Counted from the stretch's first letter, positions 15,101-62,347 are shown. The stretch: 64,000 nucleotides of DNA from Verrucomicrobiota bacterium (GCA_046346705.1 JAXMHR010000012.1:109131-173130); one strand, 5' to 3'. The notes: generated from the letters alone by a model not told the origin. A program made the numbers and translations.

Positions 15101-18100
15101 CGGGTTGGACCAATTTGGATTCCCCTCCTGGCGGTTGGAGTATCTTCAGGGCGGTGGTTTCGGCGATCCGGCGCCCTGGTATCGACAGAATGGTGGACTG
15201 TTGTTGTGGGATAGTGATTGGTATGGCGGTGGGGGGTATTGGGCGATGCAGGACAACCTCGGAGCGATCGTCTGGGGGCAGGGCTTGTCCCACAACCTTA
15301 CTGGCGGATCGTGGTTCGAATCCATCCCGGCGGTGTCGTGGATTTCGCCCGTCTCAGGGAATGTCGATGTCCTGGGTGAGTTGGAGCTGTTGTGGTCGAG
15401 TGGCGGAAACTCGGCGGAGACGTATCCAGTCGACATCGCGTTGGTCGTCCGGCGTCGTTCCGACGGTGAGTTTATCCCCATTCTTACCAACACGGTTGTC
15501 AAGCCGACCCCATCATTGAACACCCAGGAGTCGGTTCGACTCCCGGTTGGGATCACAAACCTCAGCCTTACGGTTGGGGACGAAGTCCGGGTCACACTGC
15601 GTGGTCGAGCGCCGTTCGCCCCGATGTCTCTGAATCTGAATGATCGCCTTGAGTTCGTTCTTTCCGCTCCCAAGAGGTCCGCGGTGGTGACGCTGGACGT
15701 TGGTGCGAATGCCGTCCCGGTCGCCCAGGCGCATACCCCGACTTCGGCCCTGCGCTTCGCGGGTAACAGGGACTATTTGATGTTAGGTGGACCTGCCGCC
15801 CAGTTCCCTCCCGGAGACTTTACAGTGGAATTCTGGATGCGCTCCACCAACGGCGTGAACCGTGGGACGGTATTTTCTTACGCCGTCCCGGGTCAGGACA
15901 ACGAATTCATGATCTATGACTGCCGGAGTATTAACCTCTTTCTGAGGGGCACGGGAGTGGAAACCGGAGTCGGAGCGGTGAGCGGTACTTGGCGGCACGT
16001 TGCGGTTTCCCGCTCCGTATCCGATGGGCTGACGCGGGTTTATTTGGACGGGGTTCTCGCTTCCGAGGTCATTCTGCGTGCCGGGGATGGGGTCCGGGAG
16101 GGGGGATATTGGATTGCCGGGCAGGACCAGGACAATCTTGCGGGAGGATTTGATGAACGGGAGGCTTTTGATGGAGAACTGGATGATCTCCGCGTCTGGG
16201 GCGTCGTCCGGTCATCCGGGGAAATTGCAGAAGGTCGTTTTGTTCGGTTGGCGGGCAATGAACCCGGATTGATTGCCTCATGGAACTTCGATCAGGTGAA
16301 CAACGGGGAATCACCGAATCAGGTGGCGGGCGGATTCCCCGCGGTGTTGGGAAGCGCCGATCAGGCGCCGTCCCCGGTTCCCGGCTTTGCGCCGTTTGAC
16401 GTGGCCTTTGCAACCGACGAGGAAACCCCGGTCGCAGTGACCCTGGCTGGGACTGACGCCGATGGAGATCCGCTAACTCGGATCGTGACGTCCCTTCCGG
16501 AACACGGGACCTTGTTTCAGACCTCGGATGGTTCGAATCCGACAACGCCCTTGGGTGGGAACAGGTCTCGCCGATTCGACGGGGTTAATGATATCATCAC
16601 CATTGCCGAAAACCCCTCCGGGGACTTGTCGGCTAGCCCTGCGTGGACTGTTTCTGCTTGGATCCGTCCGCGATCTGCGGGCAACACGTATCCGGTCATT
16701 TATTCCGAGGGTCACTGGGCTCTTTCCCTGGGATTGCAGCAGGGAACCGGCCGGCTGGATTCCTGGGTGAATAACAACAATCAGGCCGTCAGCGACCGGG
16801 CAGTCACCTTTGGCGAATGGCAGCACGTGGCATTAACCTCGGATGGTACGTCCCGGGTCTTCTATATCAATGGGCAGCCTGCCGGTTCCGGGAATGCAGC
16901 TGCGGTCGTCCCCAATGCCTCGGGCGCCGCCATTGGTGGCACCATCTCGGAGTTGACGGGCACGCGGAATCGCTTCGATGGAGACATTGACGATGTCGCG
17001 TTGTGGAACCGGGCGTTGACCCCTGCCGAATTGGCGGTTCTTGCTGTTGCCCCTTTGAAGGGCTCGGAGTCCGGCTTGATTGCGTGGTGGCCGCTGGACG
17101 AGATTTCCGGGAATGCGGTTGCGGATGCCACGGGGCGGGGTTCGGATGGCGTGGCTGGTGGAGGAAATCCTGCTTCGGACGGCGCCTGGCTTCCCGAATT
17201 CTCCCTGAATACCTCCCCGGCGTTTGCGGCTACCTTGCCGAGGGCAACGCATCCCGGAGGAAAACTCATCTATGTTCCGGATCAGGAATGGTCCGGGCTG
17301 GACGTGTTCGAGTATCGCGTCAATGACGGGAAGGTCGATTCCACGATCGCTTCGTTGTTTGTGCGGACACGCACCGTGAATGACCCCCCGACTGCGGTGG
17401 CGGATGTTGTGTCTGCGATTTCGGGTCTGCCCGAGTATATGTCCGGGATTTTGTCCAATGACTTCGATGTCGAGGGCGCCAAGGTGTCCCTCCTGGACTA
17501 TACGAATCCATCCCACGGTGCTCTTGCCAAGGGAGAGGGCGGCGTCCTGATCTACACTGCGGAGGTCGGATTTGCCGGTACGGATTCGTTTACCTACCGA
17601 ATTTCGGATGGTGTCGGGGCGAGCGTCCCCGCGACTGTGACGATTCATGTGGCGACGCCGGGGCAGTTCCGGTGGATCAACGTCGCGGGTGGAGATTGGA
17701 GCGTTGCCTCCAATTGGAGCGGCAACCGAGTTCCTTCGGCGGATGACGATGTTTTCATCACTGAGCCGGGGACCTATACCGTCAATCTGGATGTCGATGC
17801 CACCGTGCGACGACTTATCTTGGGTGGTGGTGGAACCGGCCAGCAGACTTTGTCCATTGGCAGCCGAACGCTAACCGTTCTCGGCGACAGTTTTGTTCAG
17901 GACCGGGGAGAGCTGGTGCAATCGGGCGGTCAAATCATCACTGACGGAGCCCACTGGAGCGTATCGGGGAAGCTTCGATGGACGGGGGGTACGATTGCGG
18001 GTTTGGGGACAACCGAGTTTTTGCCGGGCACCGATGTCCAGGTAGGGGCGCCGGGGATTGATGTTACGGCAACCACGGGTCGCCAGTTTCTCAATCGCGG

Positions 18101-46849: not shown

Positions 46850-49800
46850 ATGAAATCCGCACGTTGGCTTTTGTCGGTACTCCTGGCCCTGACGATTCCC
46901 GTCGGCGCCTGGGGCGAGGATGTCGAGTTGGATCCCGTGGACGACTTCTACTTGTGGAGCGTGTCGAATGCGGAAGGCGCTCCGCTGCTGACGCCTTCGA
47001 GCGCAGATCCCGCCGGGCCTTCGGTCTCCTGGGTGAAACCTTCGCACGGAGACCATTTTCAGTTGCCCGATTCGGTATCACTCGTCGCCGTCGCCATGGA
47101 TCCCAACGGCCTGTTGGACGTTGTCGAGTTCCTGGCCAACGGGGAGTTGGTGGGCACGTCCCGGGTGGATTTTTGTCCGCCCTGTCCGAACCCGCCCATT
47201 TGTCCCATGGGCCCCTGCATCCTTCCCCCGGTGGGAACCCCCTTGAAGCATCAGGTCGAATGGGTGCGTCCGAAGCCGGGCTTCTATGAACTGGTGGCCC
47301 GGGCGGTTCGTGCGGACGGGTCCGTGGCGACGTCGCCTGCCATTGGCATCACGGTTGGGGCGGTCGATCCCACGTCGCTGGTCTGGGTCGAGACCGTCCA
47401 GGGCCGCGCGGTTGAGGGTCGGGTGCGGGATGATGGCACACGGGACTTCATTTCCTTCCGGGTCCATCGGCAGGGCAACACCCAACGAAACCTGCAGGTG
47501 TTTTATCATTTGAAGGGCGAGGCCATTCCCGGTGCCGACTACCTGGCGTTTCCCGGCCCAATTTCCTTTCTTCCGGGAGTGGAGGCTCAGGAAGTACGGT
47601 ATGAGGTTTTGGAGGATTTTCTGCTCGAGGGAGAGGAATCCCTGGTTTTCGTGCTCGACCCATCCCCCACGATGGGGCCGGCGTCTCCCTACGAAGTGGA
47701 TCCCAATCGCGCGTCCGCCACGGGTTTCATTGAGGATTCAGGATCCGAGATTCCGGTGGTGACGGTCCAAACGCGACTGCCCTATGCGCTGGAAGGGGAC
47801 CGCCTCAATCGCGGGGAATTTCTCCTGAACCGGACGGGAGATCTCTCCCAGGCATTGTCGGTTAATTTTGAGGTTTCGGGGACTGCGAACCGCGGCTCCG
47901 ACTACCGACTGGTGCTGAACCCGTGTGATGACTGCGCGGCTCCGGACCAGGAGGTGAGTGGAAACACCCTGGTCTTCCCCGAAGGACAGGGAAGCCTGGT
48001 GATTGGAGTTTTCGCAAACTTTGACGGTTTGCCCCCGCACGCGGAGGCGTTTGTCGAGGATCTCCAGTTCCAGATCTCCTCACCGATGATTCCCGCGGTC
48101 CTCGGTGCACGCCCGCCGTACCTCGTGGGAAATCCCGACCGGGCTTCCGTCTCCGTGATTGAGCGGAGGAATCCCGGGGGCCCGGAGGTGATCCTGATTC
48201 AGCCCTCCGAAGGAGAGATATTGCCGCTCGGTGTTCCCAATGGGCTCCGGGCGTTGGCGGTGGATCCGAAGGGCTCGATCCGCCGGGTGGAATTTCTCGC
48301 CAACGGCGCGCTGGTGGGCGTTTCCGAGATCACGACCGAGGAGGTCGATGTTCCCGGCCGGATTCGGGTTCATTCCGCATCGTGGACGGTGGCGGACGTC
48401 GCGCAGTCCGGACAGTACGTCCTGAGCGCACAGGCCGGGTCCGTGGTTTCGGGGTTGGTTCCGGTGACCGTGGAGGGCGGAAGCTCCCTGTTGCCAACGG
48501 TGACCCTCGCCACCCGCAGGACTCCTGTGCAGGAATCGGGGGATGCCCAGAGCCGCACGGGAGGATTCGTCCTTCATCGCTCGGGAGGCGGGGGACTGGA
48601 CGGGGCTCTGACGGTCTTCGTGCTCGCCTCCGGTTCCGCCATTCCGGGTCTCGACTATCAGTGGAATGGCGGGCCACGGGTCGATTTCCCGGGAAGCCTT
48701 CCCTATTTTGGCGCGTTCCAACCCGTCGTTTTCAAACCGGGCGAGACTGAAGCCACCCTTGAATTCACGGCGCTCCAGGACGGCCTCGTCGAGGGGCGCG
48801 AGACGGTGGAGGTGCAGGTGGTCGAGCCTCCCGTGCTGGCGCTGGATGCCGCGGGACTCCCCGGAATCCTGCCGATGTACCTGATTGGAGTGCCCGACAA
48901 GGCCCAGGCCGATATTGAAGATGCGGATTTGAAGGGCGCCCTCGTCGTTGTCTCGGAACCCGGGGCAGGTTCCCGCTTCCATCCGGGGGATGTGATTCCA
49001 ATCACGGCAACCGCGATCCGGCCCGACGCCGGGATTGAGTCCATCCAGTTTCTCGCCGACGGCCAGGTGATTGGGACGGTGAATTACTGCTGCGAGGTGT
49101 GTGACTGCGCGCCGGCGCCGGTGGGACGGGCGTTCACCGCCCGGTTCGCCTGGTCGTCCGCGCCCGCAGGGACGCATGTCCTGACCGCGCGGACCGTGGC
49201 CGGGCCGAACGAATTCGCGGAATCGGCGCCCGTGACGATTACCGTGGAGGCCGGGGAAGGGGCGAATTTGGTCATCGTATCGCCTACCGAGGGAGCGGTT
49301 CTCCCGGCGGGAGTGCCGGTCACGGTGGATACCGTGGGAGTGGATCCCTCCTCGCTGGTGACAACGGTGGAGTTTTTCGCCAATGGGGAGAAGATCGGGG
49401 AGAGCTGCTTCCTGTGCGTGGTGGATGGGATCTTCCCGCCCGGCACCCCGATTCACAATCACCTGGATTGGACCCCCAAGGCGCCGGGCTCCTACGTGTT
49501 GACGGCGTTGGGGTGGTTCTCGGATGCCGCGGGAAATTTGCGCAAGGTGCCGTCGTCACCGGTGACGCTCCGGGTGAAAGAGAATTCCCAGGGGGCTCGG
49601 CTGACTCTCCTGGAACCCGTAAATGGGGCTCAGGTCACTTCGGGCGAAGACGTGTCGGTGACCTGCGTGGGCGTGGGCCGCGAAGGTGGAATCACCGACG
49701 TGGCACTGCGCGTGGATGGGGTATCCGTCGCCGAGTCGCACCTGTCGTTTTTCCGTCCCCCGGGGGCCGACGAGGAGGTGCGTCATTCCTTTGTGATCCG

Positions 49801-51400
49801 TCTCGCGCCGGGAACCCATCGATTGGACGTTCAGGATCTGAAGGACCCTGCAATCCAATCCCCCCCGGTGACTGTGGTGGCCGTGGCCTCGGGCGCGCGG
49901 ATCACCTGGGTCCAGCCGGTGGAAGGTGCGGAGTTCGCGTTCGGAAAGCCCATCGAACTGGAGGTTCAGACGGTGGATCCCGCGGGACTCCTGTTCCTCG
50001 TCGAATACCTCGCGGACGGCATCAAGATCGGGGAGTCCACCTACGACTGCATCACCTGTCGTCCCGCCCCCGGCGCAACCCTCGTGCAACGGTTCACCTG
50101 GGTCGGGGCTCCCGTGGGGCTTCATACGTTGGTGGCGCGGTCGCAGAAGGCGGATGGCACCTGGGTCGAATCCGAACCCCGGGTGATCTCGGTTCGGGAG
50201 ATCGGGGAAACACCGTCGTTTGTCCGGCGGGTGCTCCCGACCACGTATGCCGCCGACAGCCCTTTCACCGTGACCTTGATTGTGTCGCCGGCGGATTCGG
50301 TGGCTGCGTATGTGGTGGAGGAGGTGCCTCCGTTTGCCCGGCCGACCTTTGGGATTCCCGAAAACCTGCCGCCGTTTTGGCGGGTGGTGGCGATCAGCGA
50401 TGGCGGGGTGTTCGATTCGGTCACGGGCAGGATCAAGTATGGTCCGTTCCTGGATTCGGCACCCAGGACGTTGTCGTATCAGGTGCTCCCGGACCGCGTT
50501 GTGGACGTCGCCCCGTTTGAGGGCGTTGGAGTTGCCGATGGGGTCCGTTCTTCCATCACGGGCGACCGTGAGCTCCGCGGTGCCGTGCAGCATCCGGCGG
50601 ACCGGGATCCGGCCGACAATGCGTTGGGGGCCGGAGAACTCACCCGATACGCCGCCGCCTGGAAGCGGGAAGAGCTCTGGCCCGGCGGTCCTAATCCCAT
50701 CCCCCTCGATTACGTGACCCGGGCCGCCGCCTTGTGGAAGGGGGGCGAACGCTACTCGTATGATCCGACCGCGGGTGCTCCTCCCTTCTGCTGGGTGTAC
50801 GGGCCGTTCCCGGTTCCGGGGGCGGCATCCGCAGCCTTGAGTCCAACGTTCGCCGGCATGGCGGTGCGCACCGTGGAGACCCGGGCCGACGGGACCCGCC
50901 ATGTCACGGTCCGCTTGACGCCGGCGCCGGGCATCCGGGCGTTTGCCCTGGAGGAATCCCTTGCGGTCACCGGCGCGGTCCTGGGCATGACGCCCGAAGG
51001 GGCGCTGGCGCCCTCCGGACGCGTGATTCGTTGGGGGCCGTTCTATGGTCCGGACCGCGTGGAGGTTTCCTATGACGTCGCGGCCGGGATTCCCGGGTTC
51101 GTGGTCTCGGGGCGGGCGTCGTTCGACGGACAATCCGTCGCCGTACATGAACGTACCGAGTCGGGGGATGGGGAAAGCAGCCCCCGGATCGGCATGGATG
51201 TCCTACACGACGGGGCTCATCAATTCTCGATGGACCTCAGCGGGATGCCGCCAGGGAAGGGACTGGTCCTCGAGATGAGCACGGACCTTCAGCACTGGAC
51301 TCTCGTGGACACCTTCACCCAAGGAGCCGGTGCGGCATTCGCACGGGATGTCCTCGTTCTGGGGGACGCCGTACGCTTCTACCGGGCCGTGTCCCGCTGA
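46850..51400 (+). CDS. Large secreted Ig-like/Calx-beta repeat protein (1,516 aa) with a terminal beta-sandwich-like module
   Basis: Signal peptide: [22 protein letters not shown]. Six Ig-like units are marked by (V/I)EF(L/F)A(N/D)G..(V/I)G(T/V/E)S. Calx-beta-like units are present ([31 protein letters not shown]; [27 protein letters not shown]). The tail reads ..[12 protein letters not shown]...[10 protein letters not shown]. Confidence 0.85.
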
Positions 51401-51456
51401 ATTGGAATCACCGCCTGGGCTCGACGCCGGGCCTGGGGAACCGGCAGTCTTGGCGG

Positions 51457-52473
51457 GTGAACTCCCTCGATCTGAAGTGCGTCCGGACGTTCGCGTCCCG
51501 GGCCTTGGCGTCCCTCGTGTTCCTGGCGGTCTGCCTCTCCGGTTCGACGTGGGCGGGGCCTCTGGATGACGTGTATCGGTTGGGTCCGGATTCCCTGCCG
51601 CAGGAAGGCGTGCCGAAGGGCAGGGTGATCGGGCCGCTCACGCTGCCGAGCCAGGTATTCACCAACACGACGCGGAACTACTGGATCTATGTGCCGGCGC
51701 AATACGATCCGAAGAAGCCCGCGGCGCTGATGATTTTTCAGGACGGGCATGCCTTTGTCGGGCCCGAGGGCGAATACCGGATTCCCAACGTCTTCGACAA
51801 CCTGATCTACCGGCGCGAGATGCCGGTGACGATCGGCGTCTTTGTGAATCCGGGCCGCACGCCGGACCAGAAGGAGGCCTCGTCGTCCGACTGGGGCGAC
51901 CGGGTGAACAACCGGGCGACGGAGTATAATGAGCTTAACGACCGTTACGCGCGCATGATTGTTGAGGAGTTGATCCCCACCCTGAAGAAGGACTACGCGA
52001 TCTCGGACAACCCGGATGACCGCGCCATTGCCGGGGCCAGTTCCGGGGCGATCTGTGCGTTCACCGTCGCGTGGCAGCGTCCGGACCAGTTTCACAAGGT
52101 CATCAGCACCATCGGGAGTTTCACCAACATCCGCGGCGGACATGTCTATCCCGACCTGGTGAAATCCTCGGATCGGAAGCCCATTCGCATCTTCCTCCAG
52201 GACGGCTTGAACGACAACCGGGGAAGCCGTCGCGACGGCGGCTACGACGCGACCTGGGACTGGCACACGCAGAACCGGAAGATGGTGGAGGCGCTGACGG
52301 CCAAAGGCTACGACGTGAACTATTGCTGGGGCATTGGAACCCACTCCAACAAACAGGGCGGCGCGATGATGCCCGAAATGCTCCGCTGGCTCTGGCGGGA
52401 CTATCCCCGTCCCGACGACCCCGCGGACGATTCCAACCGGAAGCTCCTGCCCGCCGTGTCCCCGGCGCCCTGA
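51457..52473 (+). CDS. Secreted esterase (Esterase/PF00756, enterochelin-esterase-like alpha/beta hydrolase)
   Basis: Signal peptide: [18 protein letters not shown]. Motifs: [41 protein letters not shown] (GxSxG), ISTIGSF. Confidence 0.8.
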
Positions 52474-52699
52474 GGCGGTTCGATAAGATGGGAGGGATGG
52501 CATGTTGCCGTCCGAAAACAGATCCGCGGTTGGGCGCGAGGATGGAATTGCGTGTGAATCCCCGTACGAAGGGCGTGACTTGAATGGGGCTCGCAGCATG
52601 CAAGCCCTCCCGTGGGAAGGAGGGGAGGGGCGGCGTCCCGCCGTCCGTAAACAATTCCGGGACCTCGCGGCTAAGAGCAAAGCGGAGCGGGGGCAACTC

Positions 52700-53325
52700 G
52701 AAGAAACGCATGAACCTTGAAGAGGAAATTCAGCGACCCCAGACCGCAGGGAGATGATCCGCGCCCGTGTCATAGCAATACCTTCCATCGCGAAGCGTCT
52801 TGGACTGCGGTAGTCCCCGCTTTCCGACGTGACGGGACGCGCTCCGGAGTCACTGGACCCTATTCCCACGGACGCCACCCGAGTCCCTCGTGGAAGGACG
52901 GTGGAACCTGGGGGGAAGGTCAGTGGGCCTGGCACCTTCTCCATTGCACCTCGCGACTCAAGGGCGGCCGGAACCCGAGTCGGGCGCTTGGACCAACTCA
53001 AGCCTTCGTCCTCAATGGTCCATGAAGGACGTCCCTGGTAGAGGAAGATAAGCGCACACAAAGGCCTGGTTCTGGGTGGACGGCCCCACTCGCTCCGCCG
53101 CGAGATGGGAGTCGAGGCCTTGCACCTCATCCGCACCCCCATCTCGCGGGGATGCCGGCGGCCATTCCAGACGATGAACCGCCGGATCCAATCCACATAA
53201 GCCTCCTCGGTGCGCAGGGAAAGCTGCCGGAAGCGGATCACTTCCCGACATTGATCCAGGAACCGGAGCTTCGGATTGGGGATGTAGCGTTCCAACGGTC
53301 TCTGGGGTGCGGAGCGCCGCTCCAT
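52700..53325 (-). pseudogene. Decayed, truncated integron-type tyrosine recombinase (IntI-like N-terminal SAM-like domain plus start of catalytic domain)
   Basis: MERRSAPQRPLERYIPNPKLRFLDQCREVIRFRQLSLRTEEAYVDWIRRFIVWNGRRHPREMG matches by eye the IntI1 N-terminus ([42 protein letters not shown]). The next segment (EVQGLDSHLAAERVGPSTQNQA) lies in another frame. The frame then returns (LCALIFLYQG..WSKRPTRVPAAL). Similarity fades after ~200 aa and the catalytic RHRY core is not recoverable. Confidence 0.65.
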
Positions 53326-53769
53326 CCGACCCCGGCCGGACCTGGGTGGGATCCTGCCCACCAGCGACGACCGACCTTCCCCATCCGCTTCGGCATTCAT
53401 CCCCGAACTCTATCCCGACCTTGGTCTCCACCGGCCATCCGAAACGCCTCCCGAGAAATGAGGAGCGGAGGCGGATTCGCGACGCGCAGCGTCGAGTTGG
53501 GCGGAACTTCTTCGATCTCAAATCGGTGAAAACCGTTCTCTTGCAGCGAATGGGAGATCCTGTTGGACGGCGGGGTTCCGAGTTGGACCGAAGAAGGCGC
53601 TTCCCGTCAGACCCGCCCACCCCTCCGGACTCAAGTTAGGTGGATGATGCGTCGCTCAAGTGCCCAATAATCCCCTCTTTCGCATAGACATAGCGAGCGT
53701 ATTAGGCTTCGCTCTACTGAGTTAGGCGGATCCTGCTTCCGTCCAATAATAGTTCGCCAGAAGGATGCC

Positions 53770-54561
53770 ATGCCACGTAGAAGTCGATGGAGTCAAAAAT
53801 CGTTTGAGAAGGGAGTTCAAGAGATTGAGCTCTTCTCATGGGACTATTTCGGTGACTACATCTACGACAGGTTGCTGGACTTCAAGACCTACGTCTTTCG
53901 AGGCCATCGACGGTCCGATTGGAAGCTTGAGTCGACGCTAGACAGGGAACTTAGGGGGACGCTTCCAAATTTGCGCCAATCGCGCATGCAGGCCCACCTT
54001 GAAACCTTCAAGCACGCCGCGCGGGGCAGGCGCGGTCAGAACCCACCACGGCTGGACACCGAGAATGATTGGTGGGCACTTGGTCAGCATTACGGTCTTT
54101 ACACCCCACTCCTGGACTGGACCACGTCGCCATACGTTGCCGCCTTCTTTGCATTTGAAAAGACCAAGCACGACGATTCCCACCGCCGCGCGATCTGGTG
54201 CCTCGCGCAGAAGAGCATCGCAGATCGTTCCACCGAAATCGCGTCCCAGCACAGCGGGAATGATCGCCCCCCGATCGTAGAGTTCATCCGTCCGTTCTCA
54301 GATGAAAACTCACGCCTCGTCAATCAGGGCGGTCTGTTTACTCGTAGTCCATTGGGCGTCGATCTTGAGACGTGGGTAAAGCAGCAGTTTCCAAATGAGA
54401 CCAAGAGTTGCCTCCTGATCAAGATCACTGCTCCATCTCATAGTCGTCACAAATGCCTTCAAGAGCTGAATCGCATGAATATTAACTACCTGACTTTGTT
54501 CCCAGACCTTTACGGAGCTTCGTTGCACTGTAATACAGCTCACAAGATCCAAAACTACTAA
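53770..54561 (+). CDS. FRG domain-containing protein
   Basis: Motifs: YVFRGHRRSDWKLESTLDR (FRG motif), WWALGQHYGLYTPLLDWTTSPYVAAFFAF, NSRLVNQGGLFT. AGGA lies 4 nt upstream of the ATG. GC is visibly lower than in flanking genes. Confidence 0.85.
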   Translation: MPRRSRWSQKSFEKGVQEIELFSWDYFGDYIYDRLLDFKTYVFRGHRRSDWKLESTLDRELRGTLPNLRQSRMQAHLETFKHAARGRRGQNPPRLDTENDWWALGQHYGLYTPLLDWTTSPYVAAFFAFEKTKHDDSHRRAIWCLAQKSIADRSTEIASQHSGNDRPPIVEFIRPFSDENSRLVNQGGLFTRSPLGVDLETWVKQQFPNETKSCLLIKITAPSHSRHKCLQELNRMNINYLTLFPDLYGASLHCNTAHKIQNY

Positions 54562-54563
54562 CT

Positions 54564-54665
54564 GTGCGAACCAGACGGTGCAGCGAACGGGAGCCAGCCG
54601 ATTCGCTTGGAGACAAATCCAACGTCATCGGCGGCTGGCTTCCGTCGCTGACCTTTTCGTTGGGC
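54564..54665 (+). other. attC-like imperfect palindrome 5 nt after the FRG stop, ending in a perfect GTTRRRY core (GTTGGGC 54659-54665)
   Basis: The left arm is TGCAGCGAACGGGAGCCAGCCGAT (54581-54602). The right arm is ATCGGCGGCTGGCTTCCGTCGCTGA (54627-54651). They pair with bulged G and A on the left arm and a 3-nt bulge on the right. The outer boxes are tGCGAAC (54565-71) and GTTGGGC. It could alternatively act as a terminator (TTTT follows the stem). Confidence 0.5.
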
Positions 54666-54681
54666 ATCAACACACAGGCCA

Positions 54682-54954
54682 ATGAATCACTTGCCCGCAA
54701 ACCAAGGCGACATCGGTTGGCGAAGGTTCTTCATCTGCGTGGAGGTGGGGTTGGCCTTGTCGTGGTTCGGGGCCGAGGGTTGCAAGGGGAGGATCTCGGA
54801 CATGTGCTTCGCTGTTATGGGGATGACCACGGTTGTCCTTCTATTCGTGCTCCCCTGGTTCTGGGCCAGACTTCGCCACGTGGCGCTATTGGGCTGGCTC
54901 ATGGGCGTTGGCTCAGTCTTCCTCTTGGCACTTCGGTCCCCTGGTCACCGATGA
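54682..54954 (+). CDS. Small (90-aa) predicted three-helix membrane protein
   Basis: Three hydrophobic stretches are present: FFICVEVGLALSWFGA, MGMTTVVLLFVLPWFWA, VALLGWLMGVGSVFLLAL. Its stop overlaps the ATG of the next gene (ATGA at 54951-54954). It starts 23 nt after the GTTGGGC core. I recognise no homology. Confidence 0.45.
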   Translation: MNHLPANQGDIGWRRFFICVEVGLALSWFGAEGCKGRISDMCFAVMGMTTVVLLFVLPWFWARLRHVALLGWLMGVGSVFLLALRSPGHR

Positions 54955-55607
54955 ATACGAATTTGCCCAACAAAGCGGCTGCACTCGAACGCCTCGATGC
55001 ACCCTGGTTCCAGTCGAGTATCATGGGCGCGGCGTCGGTGAGCCGAGACGTTGGGCAAATTATGAATGTCCCCGAATTTATCATCGCATTCCTTCAAGCT
55101 GTAGCATGGCCCGCAGTTGTGGTGACACTCGCCCTAACTTTCCGCAGCGACTTGGCGGCGCTGCTCGGCCGAATCAGCACGTTCAAACACAAAGAGACGG
55201 AACTTCAGTTCGGGCGCGAACTCGCAGAGGCAGCCGATGAGGTGAGGAGAGAGTCGAGCGCTGGAGCCGAGTATCTATCAACTCCGGAAGCCAGGAAGAT
55301 TCTCGCGGTCCTAGAGATTGATCCTAAGGCCGCGATTATCGCCGCGTGGGTTGAGTTCGAATCCGCTGCCCGCGCTGCTTTGCCGCAGAAGCTAGGTTCG
55401 GAGAGACCGTCTCCGATTCCGCATGTTATCGACGCACTCTTGGCGAGCGGACGATTGCACAAATCCGACGCTGAGTTTCTGGGTGTATTGCGCAGGCTTC
55501 GGAATGCCGTTCTGCACTCCGCTGAGGCACCTGTAGATCAAGAAATGGGTTACAAGGCGGTGACCGCGTTACTAGTGATGGCGTGGGAACTGCGTCATCC
55601 GGAATGA
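54951..55607 (+). CDS. Membrane-anchored protein with a C-terminal HEPN-like (DUF4145-like, R-N-x3-H) motif
   Basis: The N-terminal TM helix is FIIAFLQAVAWPAVVVTLALTF. The C-terminal helical domain carries LGVLRRLRNAVLHS (Rx4H with Asn after Arg, the HEPN signature). ATG 54951 was chosen over the long ORF start at 54564, which would read through the hairpin. Confidence 0.55.
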   Translation: MNTNLPNKAAALERLDAPWFQSSIMGAASVSRDVGQIMNVPEFIIAFLQAVAWPAVVVTLALTFRSDLAALLGRISTFKHKETELQFGRELAEAADEVRRESSAGAEYLSTPEARKILAVLEIDPKAAIIAAWVEFESAARAALPQKLGSERPSPIPHVIDALLASGRLHKSDAEFLGVLRRLRNAVLHSAEAPVDQEMGYKAVTALLVMAWELRHPE

Positions 55608-55613
55608 CAAACG

Positions 55614-55705
55614 GCCCAACATGCACTGCAGCGAACCCGGCGGGGGCTTCGTGGTTGCAATCGTTGTGTCTCGTGCGCCGGGTCGCTGAGCTTGGGTCGT
55701 TCGGC
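55614..55705 (+). other. Second attC-like imperfect palindrome 7 nt after the HEPN-gene stop, starting with a perfect RYYYAAC inverse core (GCCCAAC 55614-55620)
   Basis: The arms are TGCAGCGAACCCGGCG (55628-55642) and CGCCGGGTCGCTGA (55676-55689). They have the same bulged G and A as the first site. GCCCAAC is the exact reverse complement of GTTGGGC at 54659-54665. The candidate 3' core is GTTCGGC (55699-55705). Confidence 0.5.
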
Positions 55706-55830
55706 GTGTTGACCATGAGCACCCAACCTCGATCACACCTCAGCAAAAGACAACGTGAGCGTTGCATGATCGAAGCAGCATGGGCGGCTTTTGCTCACGC
55801 GTATCCGGCACGTAGTGGAAAGGCAATGGG

Positions 55831-56090
55831 GTCAGATCTGTATCTTTTACAATTGACTGCTTTTTGCGACGGACTCGAGCGGGGAATGCATGGACTGCGG
55901 GCCTTGGTGCACCGGCGTTCCGGAACCTTGGATCCCGCGATTCGGAAAGGCTCGCGCCAGCCGTGTTCGGCCCTTCTGAAGTCGTCTGCGGTGACAAAAG
56001 TTTCCGGTCATTCGCTGGATTCAGGATTGTTCATCGCGTTTGAAGGATGCCGTGACTGTTGACTTCGTATGTCGCCGGAATCGAAGGCAG
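55831..56090 (+). repeat. Direct repeat copy 1 (260 bp), ~97% identical to 61397..61655
   Basis: Manual alignment to copy 2 gives about 6 substitutions and one 1-nt indel (CTTTTTGCG vs CTTTTGCG). The indel breaks any shared reading frame, so the repeat is most likely non-coding. Confidence 0.9.
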
Positions 56091-56093
56091 GAG

Positions 56094-56149
56094 CAACGGG
56101 GTCGGATCTGTATCTTTGGGGGGGGCAACGGGGTCTGATCTGTATCTTT
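56094..56149 (+). repeat. Two tandem partial copies of the repeat 5' end (CAACGGGGTCNGATCTGTATCTTT) separated by a G8 run
   Basis: The copies are CAACGGGGTCGGATCTGTATCTTT (56094-56117), GGGGGGGG (56118-56125) and CAACGGGGTCTGATCTGTATCTTT (56126-56149). Compare CAATGGGGTCAGATCTGTATCTTT at 55824-55847 and ..ACAGATCTGTATCTTT at 61398-61413. Confidence 0.85.
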
Positions 56150-56412
56150 GACTTTCTGGAGGGACAACTGTGATAGCGAGTAAGAGTTCGCGTGCGCCAT
56201 GGGTCCGGATGGATCGCGTTCTTAGGACGCTTGTACTCCTGGGGTTCGGTGCTCAAAGAGCCCCTTGGATCAGTTCGGGAATCTCGGTGGCCACCGGTAG
56301 GAGTTTCTGGACTGCAGCCTGTCGCCGGGGGGGGCTTTGCATTAAACTTTAGTCGCGTTTCGGTTGAGGTCCGGAGTCCACGAAAGCCCTGAACGATGCC
56401 GCTGCAAACCGG

Positions 56413-57957
56413 TTATGCGGTCAATCGCTCGCGGAGTGGCGCCCGATTGAGGTCGCGCTTCACGCTCTCGTCGTTCACCACCGCTTCAAGCTGGGCGAAG
56501 GTGTCCGCGGCCTGGGTCGATTCGGTTTTCAACCGGTCGCGCATCTTGGACCAGTAATTGTTCAGCGCCTTGGTGACGCTGTCCTGCATGTCCTGCGGCA
56601 GATAGCGAATCCTCTCGAACACCTGACTCGAAGCCGTGGAGAAGATATCATTGACCTCGATGGTTCCCTTTCGCCACTCGCGCAATCGGTCGTCCATGCC
56701 GATGTCCATCAAACCCTGCGTCCTATCCACCCAGACGTCAGTGAAGATGAGCTCATTTTCGACGGACTTGCTTACCGAGCCGATGAAGCGTCCCTGGTTC
56801 GCTTGGACAAACATTCCAAACGTGTTGGCCATCCGCTCGTAGCGGGCCTTGAACGCCTCCTTCACGGCTTCTGCCCACTCGCGGGCATCGGCCTTTTGCC
56901 CATCCGTGGGCAGATCATTGGCCCAGCGATCCAGTGAAGCCTCCGCCTTTTCGTACATCTCGCGGGCACGGTCGAGTCCGTTGACCTTGAGAAAGTCGTC
57001 GACGTCGCGCCGGGTCTGCGACACGGAAACGAGGATTGCTCCCTGGTTTGGCACCAGGCGTTGCAGGTCGTCCAGCTGGGCGCGGTATTCGGAGCTCAGA
57101 TTGGTCAAATCCTTGTAGAGCGCGTTGACCGCGGTGATGAAGCCCTCGAATTCCGGTCCGATGGCTTTCTGGATGGTTTCGGAGACGGCCATGCCTGGAT
57201 CGCGGCAGAGTTCGGGATTATATGCAGCGAGGTCCTTTGCGGAGACTCCGAGCTCCTTGCCCTTGGCGAAGTAATCCTTGCCCAGCAGCGAGATCTTCGG
57301 GACCAGCTTCGCCAGCTGCTCGGGAAGGCCGGCCTCGATGAGCAGGTAGACCACGGCATCGTTTGCCAGGTCGGGCACTTTCATAAAGTAGTCGAGAAGA
57401 CGCTTCAGGCTGTCCGAGTACCGCAGGTAGGCGTCAGTGCCCCTGGAAAGCCCCTTTTTCATGATGTCCGACATCTTCCGGCAGGCTTCGGCCTCGAGGC
57501 CCTCGATGCGTTTCGACTCCTCGCTCATCGTGCCCCATTTCTTCGTCAGGTCCGCGACGAGCTGATTCAGTTTCACCTCGAGAGCCGCAAAATCGTCGCG
57601 CATTCCCTCAATATTGAGGTTCACAAGTCCCTGCAGGAACTTCATCTCCTGGGTGACCTCATGCTCGCGCCACCAGTTGACCTCATCACCAGGATAGACC
57701 AGGCCGGTGGTTACTTTTGAGAACGGCAGGACCCAACGATCAAGGACCAGTTGCATTTTGTCTTCGACCGCCCGCGCCTTGGGTTCCAGGCCCTGATCGA
57801 TCAGCGGTGGAAGGATGTCCGCAAGTGCGGAGGCGCGCGCCTGATAGAGGGGGCTCATGCGAAGCGGCACCTCGACGCGCTCGCCCGGCTTGAACGTCTC
57901 CTTGTCCTTTTCGAAACTGGCACGCAGTTCCTTTTCGCGATGGCTTAGATCGGGCAT
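56413..57957 (-). CDS. Hypothetical all-alpha protein (514 aa), third gene of an unknown three-gene module
   Basis: Start ATG 57957 (MPDLSHREKELRAS) lies 10 nt after the upstream stop. Composition is helical and charged throughout. I recognise no TM segment, signal peptide, Walker A motif or nuclease motif. Confidence 0.7.
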   Translation of the reverse strand: MPDLSHREKELRASFEKDKETFKPGERVEVPLRMSPLYQARASALADILPPLIDQGLEPKARAVEDKMQLVLDRWVLPFSKVTTGLVYPGDEVNWWREHEVTQEMKFLQGLVNLNIEGMRDDFAALEVKLNQLVADLTKKWGTMSEESKRIEGLEAEACRKMSDIMKKGLSRGTDAYLRYSDSLKRLLDYFMKVPDLANDAVVYLLIEAGLPEQLAKLVPKISLLGKDYFAKGKELGVSAKDLAAYNPELCRDPGMAVSETIQKAIGPEFEGFITAVNALYKDLTNLSSEYRAQLDDLQRLVPNQGAILVSVSQTRRDVDDFLKVNGLDRAREMYEKAEASLDRWANDLPTDGQKADAREWAEAVKEAFKARYERMANTFGMFVQANQGRFIGSVSKSVENELIFTDVWVDRTQGLMDIGMDDRLREWRKGTIEVNDIFSTASSQVFERIRYLPQDMQDSVTKALNNYWSKMRDRLKTESTQAADTFAQLEAVVNDESVKRDLNRAPLRERLTA

Positions 57958-57967
57958 GGGATTCGCC

Positions 57968-59599
57968 TTAGATTGGCTGGACCGTGGCGATCCGCCAGGG
58001 ACCTCCGTTGATGCGCTGCAGAGTCCACTTCGGGCGGACGGTGGTGTCGCAAAAGGTCCGTCGTTCCCCCTCAAATTCGCCGACGTGTTCGAGCCAGACC
58101 TCCACCTCCTCGATCACGCTCGCTCCTTTGAACCGCGTGGCATCCACGAGCGTCTTGGGATCGTCCACCCAGGCGACCTGGGCGTCGAGGACGCGGCCCA
58201 TGATGGATCGTCGTGCCTCCTCAAACATCGATTCATCCGGCGAGGGCGCGCACGGATGCACCACGAGTTTTTCCGTTCCATCCTCCGCACTGAGACGTTC
58301 GACCTCCCACGAAACGTGGAGCGCCCGCCATAGTGCGAGATCGTCGTTCTTCACCGCGCCGACCAATGCCAACATGACCTCGGCGGGAGATGCATCCGGC
58401 GGCGGCAGCTTTGGGGATTCATCGACGAGGCCCTCCTCGCCGGCGAAGGGCACCGTGGCATCCGATGGTTGCGTCAAGTCGACGTACAGGGCGCCGCCGA
58501 CCAGTGCCGCCACTGGCTCCGCAACCAGGCCGTACTCGGCGCGTTCCCCCACGACAATAAGCCGCGATTCCCCAGTGATGCGGGCGACGAATTCCCACTG
58601 AGGCTGGAGATTGGGGTCGACCAGCTTGGCGTATCGACGTTGAGCCTTGAGCATCGCCCTCGCTCGCGCGGATTCCGCATCGAGGAAATACCAACCGCTG
58701 CCGCCCGCGGCAAACCAGCCGTGGCCGGCATCCGAGATCCAATCGCTGTTTCTGAGCGGCGGCAACACGACGAGTTTTCCGGTGACTGTTCGGACGTCGT
58801 CGCGCACCGGATTGACCGCGGGAAAAGCGGGAACGATTTCGCTTCGGCGACTTTCCTGAAACGCCGACCACGCGGTTTGCGCCTTGGTGCGGACCTCGGC
58901 GGCCAATTCTTCGCCTCGTCTTCGGAAATCGAGCGCGTTTGGGGGAAGCAACACCCGGCGCCCGTCACACACGGCCACCGCGGCATCGAAGTCGGCACCC
59001 AGCGCGCTCGCCCAAGCGCCTGGATACGCTTTTCGCGCGAAGGCGACCTGGGCGCCGTGGGTCTCGCGGAGATTCCGTGCCTCGAAGCGGCTCACGAATG
59101 AGGAGGTCTGGCGCCGGTCGGCGTCCAGAATCCGCGAAAGCGCCGCCACCATGGTTTCGTCATACCATCCCCCCCAACACGCGGAGAAGCCGTCGGAAGT
59201 CATCGTATTCGGCCCGCCCTCCCCAAACACGACGGCGTTGTTTTCGTCGCGGTAGTAACGCTTCTCCGCAAGCCGGGCCGAAATGGTCAACTCGATCCAT
59301 CCATTCAAGGGCGCCCGTCGGCGGACTTTCAGGGTGATGGGGGATCCTGCAGTCAATCCCAGCCGCGCGAATCCCTGGGATTCCGAGTACAGGCCAATCG
59401 AATCCGCTTCCCGACGCTTCGCGGCCTCGAGGTCCCCGGGTGGCACGATCGGCGCACCATTTACCATCAAGATGCGATCACCGATCTCGAGTCCACTTCC
59501 GCGAAATGGGCTATCCCAGGCGATCCATGTGACCCGAACGCAAGGCGGCGACTGGCCAAGAGCCGAAGCCGTAACGAGCCCGCTGGTCAGATCGGCCAT
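57968..59599 (-). CDS. Hypothetical protein with an N-terminal PDZ-like domain (543 aa), second gene of the module
   Basis: The PDZ-like segment is FRGSGLEIGDRILMVNGAPIVPPGD..GSPITLKVRR. The remainder is unrecognised; the C-terminal ~120 aa are alpha+beta-like (..WTLQRINGGPWRIATVQPI). The start is ATG 59599 (MADLTSG) or ATG 59665. Confidence 0.65.
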   Translation of the reverse strand: MADLTSGLVTASALGQSPPCVRVTWIAWDSPFRGSGLEIGDRILMVNGAPIVPPGDLEAAKRREADSIGLYSESQGFARLGLTAGSPITLKVRRRAPLNGWIELTISARLAEKRYYRDENNAVVFGEGGPNTMTSDGFSACWGGWYDETMVAALSRILDADRRQTSSFVSRFEARNLRETHGAQVAFARKAYPGAWASALGADFDAAVAVCDGRRVLLPPNALDFRRRGEELAAEVRTKAQTAWSAFQESRRSEIVPAFPAVNPVRDDVRTVTGKLVVLPPLRNSDWISDAGHGWFAAGGSGWYFLDAESARARAMLKAQRRYAKLVDPNLQPQWEFVARITGESRLIVVGERAEYGLVAEPVAALVGGALYVDLTQPSDATVPFAGEEGLVDESPKLPPPDASPAEVMLALVGAVKNDDLALWRALHVSWEVERLSAEDGTEKLVVHPCAPSPDESMFEEARRSIMGRVLDAQVAWVDDPKTLVDATRFKGASVIEEVEVWLEHVGEFEGERRTFCDTTVRPKWTLQRINGGPWRIATVQPI

Positions 59600-59908
59600 A
59601 AACTTCGGGCAACGATTGAATTGTTCACGGCGTCCAATCAACAGGAGTTGTCCCGATAATTTCAATCGCAGAGGTTACAGGCCGGACGACTGAGGCTGTG
59701 GCAAGAATCGGGGTTTCGAATGGGAGGCTTCCGACGTCCGAGGCTCGCCACGGGCACCCGGTACGGTCAAGCGGTTGGGCTCGACTCGAACGGATTGCAC
59801 TCGGTGGGACCCACGGGGGCCGACCTTTACGTCTGGAAACTGGAGCTTGCCTTCGTTTTTCGACGCGGACACCGCTGCTTTTGAGAATCGACTCCGGAAT
59901 TGAAGGTC

Positions 59909-61318
59909 TTACCCCGGGCCGATCCCGGGAGCGTCCGTCTGCGTTGAAGTCTCTTTCAATCGAAGGGAAGCAGTCTCTCGAACCTCGGAGTCCACCCAGG
60001 GAGCCGCGGATAGCTCCTTGAGTCGCGGGGGAACGCCCAAGGCGCCGAGGGACACCACTTCCGCTCCCGCGAGTTGCACGTCGTCCTCGCAGTCCCAAAG
60101 ACATTCCTCGGAGAACCGATCTTGAAAGCTCTCCGGGTGGGTGCTCCGCATGGCCGGAACGAGATACCAGCGGGCGCAGGAATGTAGGGCCGTCTCGAAG
60201 GCGAGGCCCAATTCAGGGACGGGACCGACGCCTTCGAGTCGCTCCATCGCCGTTGCGAGATCGCAAATCCGGTAGGACGTCTCAGGTTCATTTCCGAGGG
60301 AATTCTGGAGCGCAGATCGAAGAAGTGAAAGGTCCTCCGGAGCCGCATGGACCTTCATGAGGGCATCCGCCATGTCGCTGAGGTTGCTGTCGTCGTGATC
60401 AAACCATTCCCGGGCGAGAGGCAGGACTGTCTGAGCGGGGAGGGCGACCATCGCGTCCTGCAACGCGCATCGGAGAGGGCGCCAAAGGTCGGCGTTGGCG
60501 CGGTAGATGTCGCGCAACCAGCCAAACAGGGAAGGGTCGGCAATTTTGGCCAACGCCCAGAGCGCGCCCACGGCTCTTTCCCGGTGTTCCAGGACGACCT
60601 GGCTTTGCAGGAATCCCAGATCGTCCGGACTAACCGCCGCCTCAATAAAGCGCCGGAGTCCAAAGATCCGTTTCCAATTGTCTGCGAAGTCCAATAGTCC
60701 AGGAAGATCGAGGGAGGTGAACTGGAACCGAAACGCATCCGCCTGTTCCCGGCGAGTAGCCCTGTGATTCGGACTGCTTACAATCTCGCGAATCCTCGCG
60801 CTGTGGTTGCCCAGGACCTGCCATTCCGGTTTGTCGAGAAATGCGTACTGTAAAGCCTCCTGGAGAGCGATGGCGGTTGGGAATCGGGATTCGATAATTC
60901 CGGCCAGTCGTACCGTCACCTCCGGGTCGGGAAACGACACGAGGGACTCCACGTGGTGCGTCCAGTCCTGATACGTGCGGCAATCTTCGAGGAGAATCTC
61001 GGCAGCCTCCCTGGATCCCCGGCGGCTGAGCGCCCGCAACGTCTTCCAAGTCAGTCCATGTTCCTCGCAGCCGTCGTCCTCCCGAATCCGGTTCGCGAGC
61101 GGTTCGAGGGGAAGCCCGACCCGGAGGGCCAGTTCCGCGTAATAGTCGCTGCGATTCTCGCACTGGTAGTCTATGCGAGGGTCCTGAAGGATGCAGTGGG
61201 TCAGTAGCCGATGCGCCACCGGTTGTGGTTCCCGGATGAGCCGGAGAAATCCGAGTCCGCGGCCGCGCTGGAGTTGTCCCAGCAGGGAGTCCGGTGGTGC
61301 ATGAATTGTATCGGACAT
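59909..61318 (-). CDS. Hypothetical helical-repeat (HEAT/ARM-like) protein (469 aa), first gene of the module
   Basis: The sequence has helix-turn-helix repeat character throughout (e.g. AAEILLEDCRTYQDW, RAVGALWALAKIADPSLFGWLRDIY, LSLLRSALQNSLGNE). I recognise no catalytic motif. Confidence 0.65.
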   Translation of the reverse strand: MSDTIHAPPDSLLGQLQRGRGLGFLRLIREPQPVAHRLLTHCILQDPRIDYQCENRSDYYAELALRVGLPLEPLANRIREDDGCEEHGLTWKTLRALSRRGSREAAEILLEDCRTYQDWTHHVESLVSFPDPEVTVRLAGIIESRFPTAIALQEALQYAFLDKPEWQVLGNHSARIREIVSSPNHRATRREQADAFRFQFTSLDLPGLLDFADNWKRIFGLRRFIEAAVSPDDLGFLQSQVVLEHRERAVGALWALAKIADPSLFGWLRDIYRANADLWRPLRCALQDAMVALPAQTVLPLAREWFDHDDSNLSDMADALMKVHAAPEDLSLLRSALQNSLGNEPETSYRICDLATAMERLEGVGPVPELGLAFETALHSCARWYLVPAMRSTHPESFQDRFSEECLWDCEDDVQLAGAEVVSLGALGVPPRLKELSAAPWVDSEVRETASLRLKETSTQTDAPGIGPG

Positions 61319-61396
61319 GGCAGCGTTGCGGATCCGTGCTGATCGCGGCGGATTCGCCTTGGCGGGTCAAGCAGACAAGCCGGGGGGCAACTTCAT

Positions 61397-61655
61397 GACA
61401 GATCTGTATCTTTTACAATTGACTGCTTTTGCGACGGTCTCGAGCGGGGAATGCGTGGACTGCGGGCCTTGGTGCACCGGCGTTCCGGAACCTTGGATCC
61501 CGCGATTCGGAAAGGCTCGCGTCAGCCTTGTTCGGCCCTTCTGAAGTCGTCTGCGGTGACAAGAGTTTCCGGTCATTCGCTGGATTCAGGATTGTTCATC
61601 GCGTTTGAAGGATGCCGTGACTGTTGACTTCGTATGTCGCCGGAATCGAAGGCAG
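61397..61655 (+). repeat. Direct repeat copy 2 (259 bp), directly upstream of the Phd/VapC pair
   Basis: See copy 1. It is preceded by GGGGGGCAAC (61382-61391), the same G-run+CAAC prefix seen at 56118-56129. Confidence 0.9.
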
Positions 61656-61722
61656 CCGGCGCTGTCCTGTTCGACCCTTGGGTGCTATTGACCTCGTGCG
61701 GAAAGTGACCATTATTCTGGTC

Positions 61723-61965
61723 ATGCAAGCTTCCGTTGCGCAGGCGAAAAGCCAATTGGCCGATTTGCTTCGGCGGGCCGAACGTGGCGAGGAGGTTGTG
61801 ATCGCCCGGCATGGATTACCCGTAGCGCGCTTGGTGGCCATTCGATCCTCTGGCCCGCCGCCTGTTTCTGCGACGCCCTTGGATCCAAAAGATTATGCGG
61901 GAATTGACCTGGATGAACCGGCATTCCCCTCATGGGAGAAAGGTGGCAATGCGAGCCTTGATTGA
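61723..61965 (+). CDS. Type II antitoxin, Phd/YefM family
   Basis: MQASVAQAKSQLADLLRRAERGEEVVIARHGLPVARLVAI is the canonical Phd/YefM N-terminal fold signature. The gene overlaps the toxin gene by 17 nt. Confidence 0.85.
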   Translation: MQASVAQAKSQLADLLRRAERGEEVVIARHGLPVARLVAIRSSGPPPVSATPLDPKDYAGIDLDEPAFPSWEKGGNASLD

Positions 61966-62347
61966 TTCCGGATTGTGGTGGCGGCGTTACCACGGATTGC
62001 CAATGGGCCGGCGGCTCGCCCGTTTCCTGGAACAGGAGGTCAGCGAGTTCTGGCTTTGTCCGGTCTCGGTTCAGGAGATGCTCTACAAGTGGCGGCATCG
62101 GAAGTTGCCGGCACCGGATCCTGCCGAATGGCTCGCGGAGGCCACGGAAGGTTATCGGGCGGCACCGGTCACCCTTGAAGCTGCCCGGGTGGCCGGGCTT
62201 TGGGAATGGGCGCATGGGGATCCCGTGGACCGCTTGCTCGCCGCGGTGGCGAACACCGAGGGTTTGACGCTGGTGCATACGGATCAGAGGCTTCGGTCAT
62301 TGTCTGGATTTCCCCAGCGATACTTTCCGAATATTGGAATGGTGTAG
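61949..62347 (+). CDS. vapC: Type II toxin, PIN-domain VapC family
   Basis: The N-terminal acidic motif is MRALIDSG. The C-terminal motif GDPVDRLLAAVANTEGLTLVHTDQRL is the DP.DR..IA.A....L.L.T.D PIN signature. Its position immediately after the Phd antitoxin also fits. Confidence 0.85.
   Translation: MRALIDSGLWWRRYHGLPMGRRLARFLEQEVSEFWLCPVSVQEMLYKWRHRKLPAPDPAEWLAEATEGYRAAPVTLEAARVAGLWEWAHGDPVDRLLAAVANTEGLTLVHTDQRLRSLSGFPQRYFPNIGMV

Follow-up and report, generated by a model that had tools for sequence, protein, structure and literature searches.

The object of this analysis is a block of three genes, here called A, B and C, at positions 56,413 to 61,318 of a 64,000-nt stretch of DNA from Verrucomicrobiota bacterium (GCA_046346705.1 JAXMHR010000012.1:109131-173130), the whole of which we refer to as the window. 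An initial annotation had portrayed the block as a module of HEAT-like, PDZ-containing and all-alpha proteins, carried as mobile cargo between two repeats within an island of defence genes, and had singled it out as a possible undescribed system. Its description of the layout, three co-directional minus-strand genes of 469, ~543 and 514 amino acids (aa) separated by 309 nt between A and B and by 10 nt between B and C, agrees exactly with our list of open reading frames (ORFs; Table 1). The boundaries of the three genes are the same in NCBI and other public gene calls, which hold 100% identical proteins (P0054, P0001 and P0033); the NCBI entries belong to a Verrucomicrobiota metagenome-assembled genome (MAG) and carry the locus tags U1G08_15110, U1G08_15105 and U1G08_15100. 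Because full-length homologues of A, B and C are present in many lineages, the three are not chance ORFs of a GC-rich genome. A motif scan found no Walker A, HExxH or GxSxG catalytic-type motif in the three proteins, and since the highest 19-residue Kyte-Doolittle hydropathy remains below 1.5 in each of them, none has a transmembrane (TM) helix or a signal peptide; both scans concur with what had been noted by eye, namely that TM helices, signal peptides, Walker A and nuclease or protease motifs are all missing.

The unit that recurs in other genomes is smaller than the block. In the window, and likewise in each of the 10 further loci long enough to hold both genes (L001/L002/L007; L003; L004/L005; L006; L008, a Sphingomonadales MAG; L009; L010; L012; L014/L015; L023), B is followed by C on the same strand, with a junction that ranges from a 1-nt overlap to a 19-nt gap. 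An all-against-all comparison of ORFs of at least 70 aa left B and C as the only genes common to nine of these loci and the window, and when the loci are ordered by identity to the window protein, B and C give similar rankings (Spearman 0.83, p 0.005, n=9). The B-C family is rare, with about 20-30 clusters at 90% identity among 5.8 billion, and is scattered over Verrucomicrobiota, Sphingomonadales and unclassified bacteria or MAGs; pattern-based scans for B-C loci gave three from GTDB genomes and three from JGI metagenomes. As judged from these sequence comparisons, B and C form an operon of two closely linked genes that are inherited, and transferred, together. No A-type gene is present in the 10 other B-C loci. 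The expectation that the block would be conserved across genomes as a unit is thus upheld for B-C (10/10 loci) and fails for A, and the three-gene module of the initial annotation shrinks to a pair.

Gene A has its relatives elsewhere. At E<=1e-3 its family counts 607 representative clusters (79 at E<=1e-30), among which many members come from Streptomyces and are named 'HEAT repeat domain-containing', and many carry PF13646. While the window protein itself has no Pfam match at E<=1, HEAT_2 is found in 19 of 42 aligned homologues (best E 9.3e-11; full-length relatives at 25-51% identity), and the family profile matches the alphaRep HEAT designs (E 4.8e-11), for which PBS-lyase-type HEAT repeats were the template; the HEAT-like character proposed for A is borne out by both results at the level of the family. 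The nearest relative of A (66% identity, L013) and three more distant ones (L016-L018) stand alone in unrelated contexts, so that homologues of A are dispersed and, counter to the three-gene proposal, lie beside B-C in none of the 10 B-C or four A-family loci. By this evidence A is an ordinary member of a large, stand-alone HEAT-repeat family with no link to B-C. Outside its HEAT repeats, the A family strictly conserves an N-terminal Q17-R18-G19-x-G21 (QRGRGxG) and a C-terminal C406-L407-W408-D409-C410 (CLWDC), and C42 is nearly invariant; these motifs suggest a specific, possibly metal- or redox-linked function for a widespread, uncharacterised family.

The content of the block had been said to fit no described system, and our searches agree. 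When the three proteins were scanned against Pfam, NCBIfam, PADLOC and PHROGs, PDZ was the only result, and the same held for the complete B and C families in Pfam and PADLOC and for the searches of the PDB. Among the 5027 models of PADLOC-DB v2.0.0 there was no match for A, for B or for the B family, and for C only a 34-residue match to PDC-S13 (E 8e-4), found in 1 of 21 family members and hence not family-wide. Neither 72,556 plasmids (tblastn of all three proteins) nor 50,697 phage genomes (tblastn of B and C) gave a match, and a scan of IMG/VR yielded no relatives of B. Type II toxin-antitoxin (TA) systems do not accommodate the pair either, B and C being 543 and 514 aa long rather than below ~150 aa and matching no TA family. 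We consider it highly probable that B-C is a two-gene unit, that A is unrelated to it and that the unit lies outside every known system. What survives of the proposed undescribed system is therefore a conserved multi-gene unit of unassigned function, made of two genes rather than three.

The setting of B-C elsewhere was judged from the precomputed Pfam annotation of the neighbours in the ten loci rather than by a formal defence score. The neighbours include RND efflux genes, TetR and LysR regulators, SDR and Cupin proteins, monooxygenases, rpoN, ftsK, thioredoxins, EamA and, together with a TPR protein, a two-component system. Metabolic or housekeeping genes predominate (in at least 6 of the 10 loci), clear defence-type neighbours occur only in the window, and B-C shows no recurrent location in defence islands, which argues against the defence-island and anti-phage context that had been assumed. 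The most divergent B-C locus (L004, 6212-10642) has a plasmid-like look: a HATPase_c protein of 399 aa comes after the pair, and a DDE transposase and a RepA gene are close by. In L023 the pair precedes a weakly HNH-like gene encoding 296 aa (13484-14374). The HATPase_c and HNH-like genes may be lineage-specific add-ons.

Table 1. Features of the A-B-C block and its surroundings, in coordinates of the window
Feature	Position (nt)	Strand	Details
Gene A	59909-61318	-	469 aa; ORF list
A-B intergenic gap	59600-59908		309 nt
Gene B	ORF 57968-59665; coding 57968-59599	-	543 aa, from ATG 59599; ORF list
PDZ domain of B	59270-59599	-	residues 1-110; AF2, Foldseek, Pfam; contains the GLEIGDRILMVNG segment
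Four-helix bundle of B	58850-59176	-	residues 142-250; AF2 and alignment
Two alpha+beta domains of B	58010-58774	-	residues 276-374 and 405-530; AF2 secondary structure
Gene C	ORF 56413-58074; coding 56413-57957	-	514 aa, from ATG 57957; ORF list
Left repeat copy	55833-56090	+	258 nt
Right repeat copy	61399-61655	+	ends 68 nt upstream of the likely Phd/YefM start, ATG 61723
25-nt motif GCAACGGGGTCNGATCTGTATCTTT, tandem pair	56093-56117; 56125-56149	+	copies spaced by 32 nt, with G-runs ahead of them; closely follow the left repeat
25-nt motif GCAACGGGGTCNGATCTGTATCTTT, at repeat openings	55823-55847; about 61389-61413 (degenerate)		opens the left and the right repeat, respectively
Tyrosine-recombinase (intI-type) pseudogene	~53000-53330	-	truncated, frameshifted; Phage_int_SAM_4 integron-type N-terminus
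FRG-domain gene	53770-54561	+	Pfam E 1.6e-26; PADLOC candidate PDC-S15, full length, E 6.5e-96
attC-like site	54566-54665		z -3.97
90-aa ORF	between the FRG gene and the 218-aa ORF	+	no assigned function
attC-like site	54965-55056		z -3.02; perfect GCCCAAC...GTTGGGC boxes
218-aa ORF	54951-55607	+	match to phrog_18019 (unknown function), E 9.8e-10
attC-like site	55614-55697		z -2.1
Phd/YefM antitoxin and PIN toxin genes	61624-62347	+	overlapping; right after the right repeat; likely antitoxin start 61723

Among 5.8 billion clusters, B has 32 homologues, all of ~540 aa and nearly all full length, and the annotation of relatives of B or C never goes further than 'PDZ domain-containing'. The AlphaFold2 (AF2) model of B, made with a 29-sequence alignment, has a predicted local distance difference test score (pLDDT) of 89.4 and a predicted TM-score (pTM) of 0.74. 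Its first 110 residues form a PDZ fold at a pLDDT of ~90, and the N-terminal T/S-G-L-x-T, which makes the first PDZ strand, is almost invariant in the family. The window protein scores 21.7 bits against Pfam PDZ_6, under the 27-bit gathering cut-off; 26 of 29 family members match PDZ_6 (best E 3e-7, with PDZ_2 also among the matches), and PDZ is the sole match in a PDB sequence-profile search with B (E ~3e-3). Foldseek against the PDB aligns the model with the PDZ domains of HtrA, DegP, DegS, CtpA, CtpB and HtrA2 at probability 1.0, with E down to 4e-4 and TM-scores of 0.56-0.65 normalised to the isolated PDZ targets, and the PDZ-like fold that had been recognised in B can be regarded as established by the two lines together. 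These alignments span only 110-130 columns, with a TM-score normalised to the query of 0.15, and because they cover the PDZ domain alone, B is taken to be without a protease domain; indeed, neither a His-Asp-Ser nor an S41 Ser-Lys protease domain was found in B by Pfam, PDB profile, Foldseek or the GxSxG motif. No protease, ATPase or nuclease module is recognisable in B by sequence or fold, and Foldseek of the model against BFVD gave nothing significant.

The PDZ domain is followed by a four-helix bundle, in which ALDFRRRGEELA is the most conserved motif of the whole family, and by two alpha+beta domains. The second of these holds the invariant residues K417, W424, W431, D472, W477, H505, W525 and R529, and from the order of helices and strands in the predicted model we read residues 405-530 as NTF2/SnoaL-like. 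We know of no family in which an NTF2-like domain occurs in tandem or is fused to a PDZ domain. The C-terminal residue of B is I or L in 29/29 members, mostly within Q-P-I.

The partner protein, C, has 21 homologues in the same clusters, nearly all of full length. The AF2 model consists entirely of helices, as the initial annotation had anticipated, at a pLDDT of 67.8, and is confident at residues 1-140 and 330-385. The conserved core comprises residues 195-320 and 380-430, with the motifs RDPGMxxSE, PNQGxILVSxSQTRxDVD and FVQANQGRF. Residues 194-235 are the most hydrophobic of the conserved stretches, and C contains no hydrophobic segment of TM grade. Most full-length C proteins end in L-x-A/S. 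Foldseek of the model against the PDB found no significant relative (best E 0.33), and PDB profile and Pfam family scans found no sequence relative. Matches of C to PDC-S13, AbiZ, DUF3106, OmpH, F-BAR and Tc/Smh toxins were set aside as helical or low-complexity chance, being limited to few members or far from significance.

We suggest, with moderate confidence, that the locus is best explained as a B-C operon that lies together with an unrelated A between duplicated sequence, and that B and C act as a cytoplasmic complex in which a PDZ domain captures a conserved C-terminal tail. In such a complex B and C would be made in fixed proportion, and the PDZ groove of B would hold a free C-terminal tail, which might be its own ...Q-x-I-COOH, bound in cis or head-to-tail, or the ...L-x-A/S-COOH of C. 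The conserved Asp, His, Arg and Trp residues of the NTF2-like last domain would line a pocket for a small ligand, and B would then serve for sensing or tethering, keeping hold of its helical partner C or letting it go. Tail capture, taken as a mechanism in itself, is a tentative suggestion that we think rather improbable.

A number of observations weigh against this explanation. The model of C is poor exactly in the most conserved stretches, residues 195-320 and 388-435; the terminal A/S of C is a weak PDZ ligand, and the terminal Ile of B may be just a buried part of the last beta-sheet. The NTF2-like label comes from the order of secondary-structure elements and one weak match of a single B family member to DUF4440 (E 0.032), not from a domain-level fold search, and both the contact between B and C and the binding of a tail by the PDZ domain are deduced only from operon structure and the conservation of the termini. 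Nor are all neighbourhoods of the housekeeping kind, as the DDE transposase and RepA near the pair in L004 and the weak HNH gene downstream in L023 attest; the independent neighbourhoods number only ~10 and several are on short contigs, so that a weak tendency to lie near defence or mobile genes could have escaped notice.

The repeats that enclose the block were described as near-identical, and the block as inverted relative to its neighbours, and this is what we find: the two copies are direct, 258 nt long, and share 97.7% identity, one indel included. L022, an error-prone contig assembled separately for the same genome and matching the window at 95.8% nt identity along 14 kb, has both copies and the genes in the same order, and since it shows them independently the arrangement is not a short-read assembly artefact. 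L019 and L020 (= window 56061-61428), short-read unitigs that contain A-B-C, stop 30 nt into either repeat copy (k-1 overlap), from which it follows that the assembly graph branches at the repeat; the branching is compatible with a repeat present elsewhere, with presence or absence of the block, or with circular forms. No empty site lacking the insert was found, the other B-carrying assemblies (L019-L022) being of the same genome and having the same arrangement, and the window has no further copy of the 258-nt repeat. Neither strand of the right copy folds significantly (z 0.07 and 1.11), and the left copy has no Rfam match. The repeat was accordingly rejected as a structured RNA or an attC site, and it was rejected as coding sequence because the indel makes the reading frames inconsistent between the copies. 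A 25-nt motif, GCAACGGGGTCNGATCTGTATCTTT, opens both repeats and recurs as a tandem pair after the left one, giving three copies and one degenerate copy in the window, where none would be expected by chance; it could be a recombination or binding site.

As for mobility, no transposase or recombinase bounds the block and no transposase ORF lies inside it, no inverted repeats of at least 40 nt occur in 50-64 kb, and the hairpin and box scan found no attC-like hairpin at 56091-56412, at 61319-61398, in the A-B gap or inside the repeat. A composite transposon is not what the flanking copies describe, these being direct, 258 nt long and non-coding. In a compositional test the three genes resemble the host in GC content and codon usage, on which ground recent acquisition of the block was rejected. 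Of the mobile cargo of the initial annotation, the repeats are the one feature left, and the best reading of them is a scar of local duplication or recombination beside a decayed integron rather than the two termini of some defined mobile element. The A-B gap presumably holds a putative B-C promoter; it has no Rfam match, and promoter or terminator consensus sites were not found in it. A GTTGGGC box at 59774 in this gap was considered as an attC separating two cassettes and dismissed, as it forms no hairpin (z +0.9).

An esterase-like gene and a POT transporter gene delimit the 9-kb stretch in which the block lies, and the part of this stretch to the left of the block, 53-55.7 kb, is by its sequence features a decayed integron. 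The remnant of the integrase is divergent from three plus-strand ORFs, each followed by an attC-like imperfect hairpin, and the word 'cassettes' that had been used for these neighbours is apt for 53.5-55.7 kb; the attC-like sites were called by a hairpin and box scan, not by an attC covariance model. The first of the three ORFs, the FRG-domain gene, has a GC content of 0.53, lower than its surroundings. The third, called as 218 aa, probably starts at ATG 55063 (MNVPEF...) and encodes ~181 aa, because the called ORF overlaps the attC-like site at 54965-55056. The island had been described as filled with defence and TA-type genes; one PDC-S15 FRG gene and one Phd/PIN pair fit that description, and the remainder is two small ORFs with no assigned function.

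Other observations concern the surroundings at large. A further GTTGGGC box lies at 53496, between the integrase remnant and the first plus-strand ORF. A 673-aa minus-strand ORF at 51379-53400 is mostly spurious antisense of a real plus-strand esterase-like gene at 51457-52473, and only its first ~95 codons, about 53400-53115, derive from the integrase. Two large plus-strand genes, unrelated to B-C, encode surface or adhesin-type proteins: a giant ORF of 5475 aa at 3141-19568, and, at 46850-51400, a protein of 1516 aa with Big_7 and Calx-beta domains and a signal-peptide-like N-terminus.

Several other explanations of the block have to be weighed. If the three genes made up a single anti-phage or accessory system, travelling as mobile cargo between the repeats, their common orientation and their enclosure by nearly identical direct copies would be accounted for, and so would a neighbourhood that includes the PDC-S15 candidate, the Phd/PIN pair and the integrase pseudogene with its attC-like sites. 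Yet A is never beside B-C elsewhere and sits in a separate large family, it lies 309 nt from B where C is only 10 nt away, no family-wide PADLOC match exists for any of the three proteins, the other B-C loci are not defence islands, and the block is host-like in composition and has no mobility gene or attC at its bounds, all of which makes this account very improbable. Just as improbable, in our estimate, is that the block consists of one or more oversized, inverted cassettes of the adjacent integron. It does start soon after the third attC-like site, in the wake of an intI-type pseudogene and three ORFs that each have such a hairpin; against this, no attC-like hairpin is present at its borders, in the A-B gap or inside the repeat, a length of 5.3 kb with three large genes is far beyond the usual size of a cassette, and the homologues of B-C elsewhere are not in integrons.

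Two further proposals take the B-C pair as their subject. The pair could be a new two-gene conflict system, resembling abortive infection or a toxin with its regulator, in which B, as a PDZ/NTF2 protein, keeps inactive, until a trigger is sensed, a helical effector C that targets membranes or macromolecules. The rarity of the pair, its patchy, cross-phylum distribution, variable neighbourhoods and tight gene coupling are of the kind that such a system would show, the settings in the window, in L004 (DDE transposase and RepA) and in L023 (weak HNH) are mobility- or defence-like, and the hydrophobicity of the conserved stretch at residues 194-235 of C might be enlisted as well. We nonetheless regard this proposal as quite unlikely: the proteins have no homology to PADLOC models, occur on no sequenced plasmid, phage or IMG/VR contig, and lie among housekeeping or metabolic genes in at least 6 of the 10 loci, while C has no TM-grade segment and its Foldseek matches to pore-forming toxins are insignificant (E > 0.3). 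An anti-phage or conflict role of B-C is, in general terms, allowed by the data without being indicated by them, and we think it improbable. The proposal can be taken a step further, to a two-component cytoplasmic sensor-effector in which a protease-less PDZ/NTF2 protein, B, cages the helical effector C by tail capture and releases it on a phage or small-molecule trigger, the whole forming a new class of conflict or defence systems that spreads across phyla as a two-gene unit; this would be a long shot. Alternatively, B-C may serve an accessory metabolic or physiological function with no role in conflict, B being an enzyme or ligand-binder by virtue of an NTF2/SnoaL-like pocket and C a structural or regulatory partner. 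Pockets of the SnoaL/LEH type are known for Asp, His, Arg and Trp residues such as the invariant D472, H505, R529 and several Trp of the C-terminal domain of B, the neighbours are often small-molecule genes (SDR, Cupin, EamA, TetR, LysR, monooxygenases), and the composition is host-like. Pathway genes are not conserved alongside the pair, however, a PDZ domain and a 514-aa helical partner are atypical of NTF2-fold enzymes, and no enzyme family is matched; a proposal of this form is unlikely, and a role of B-C in accessory metabolism or physiology, put broadly, is no less doubtful.

The value of the preferred explanation, a B-C operon next to an unrelated A, is mainly corrective, in that a three-gene defence candidate shrinks to a two-gene operon and a HEAT neighbour of an already known kind. 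Context alone is no justification for a defence label on B-C. The pair is new only in the sense of being undescribed, as no described family or system accommodates it, and it is not a demonstrated new mechanism; pairs of hypothetical proteins like B-C are common in metagenome-derived genomes. Two new protein families would be gained if B-C proves to work as a unit in some defined role.

Set beside known systems, B-C resembles the two-gene systems of PADLOC-DB v2 in being a small operon of patchy distribution, here beside PDC-S15 and a TA pair, and differs from them in that no model of the 5027 matches B or its family. The A-B-C block likewise invites comparison with integron cassettes, since an intI pseudogene and three cassettes bounded by attC sites immediately precede it; unlike such cassettes it measures 5.3 kb and is bordered by 258-nt direct repeats instead of attC-like sites. 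The A family shares HEAT_2 repeats, in its central third, with other HEAT_2 (PF13646) proteins, and unlike plain HEAT-repeat proteins it adds the QRGRGxG and CLWDC motifs and has a fixed, stand-alone length of ~460-475 aa. With NTF2-like, SnoaL and DUF4440 proteins, residues 405-530 of B have in common a helix-helix-strand...curved-sheet order and conserved Asp, His, Arg and Trp residues, in contrast to the lack of any significant match in sequence or whole-chain fold. The closest likeness is to the PDZ domains of HtrA/DegP/DegS, of the S41 C-terminal processing proteases CtpA/CtpB/Prc and of the site-2 protease RseP, which have the same fold as the N-terminal 110 residues of B and with which B probably shares, as predicted, the basic binding of a free C-terminal peptide. 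Unlike these proteases, B is without a protease domain, signal peptide or membrane anchor, and its PDZ domain stands at the extreme N-terminus of a cytoplasmic protein, leading into a helical bundle and two alpha+beta domains, which, should the pair prove to be a functional unit, would make for an unusual bacterial use of PDZ: cytoplasmic, N-terminal and protease-free.

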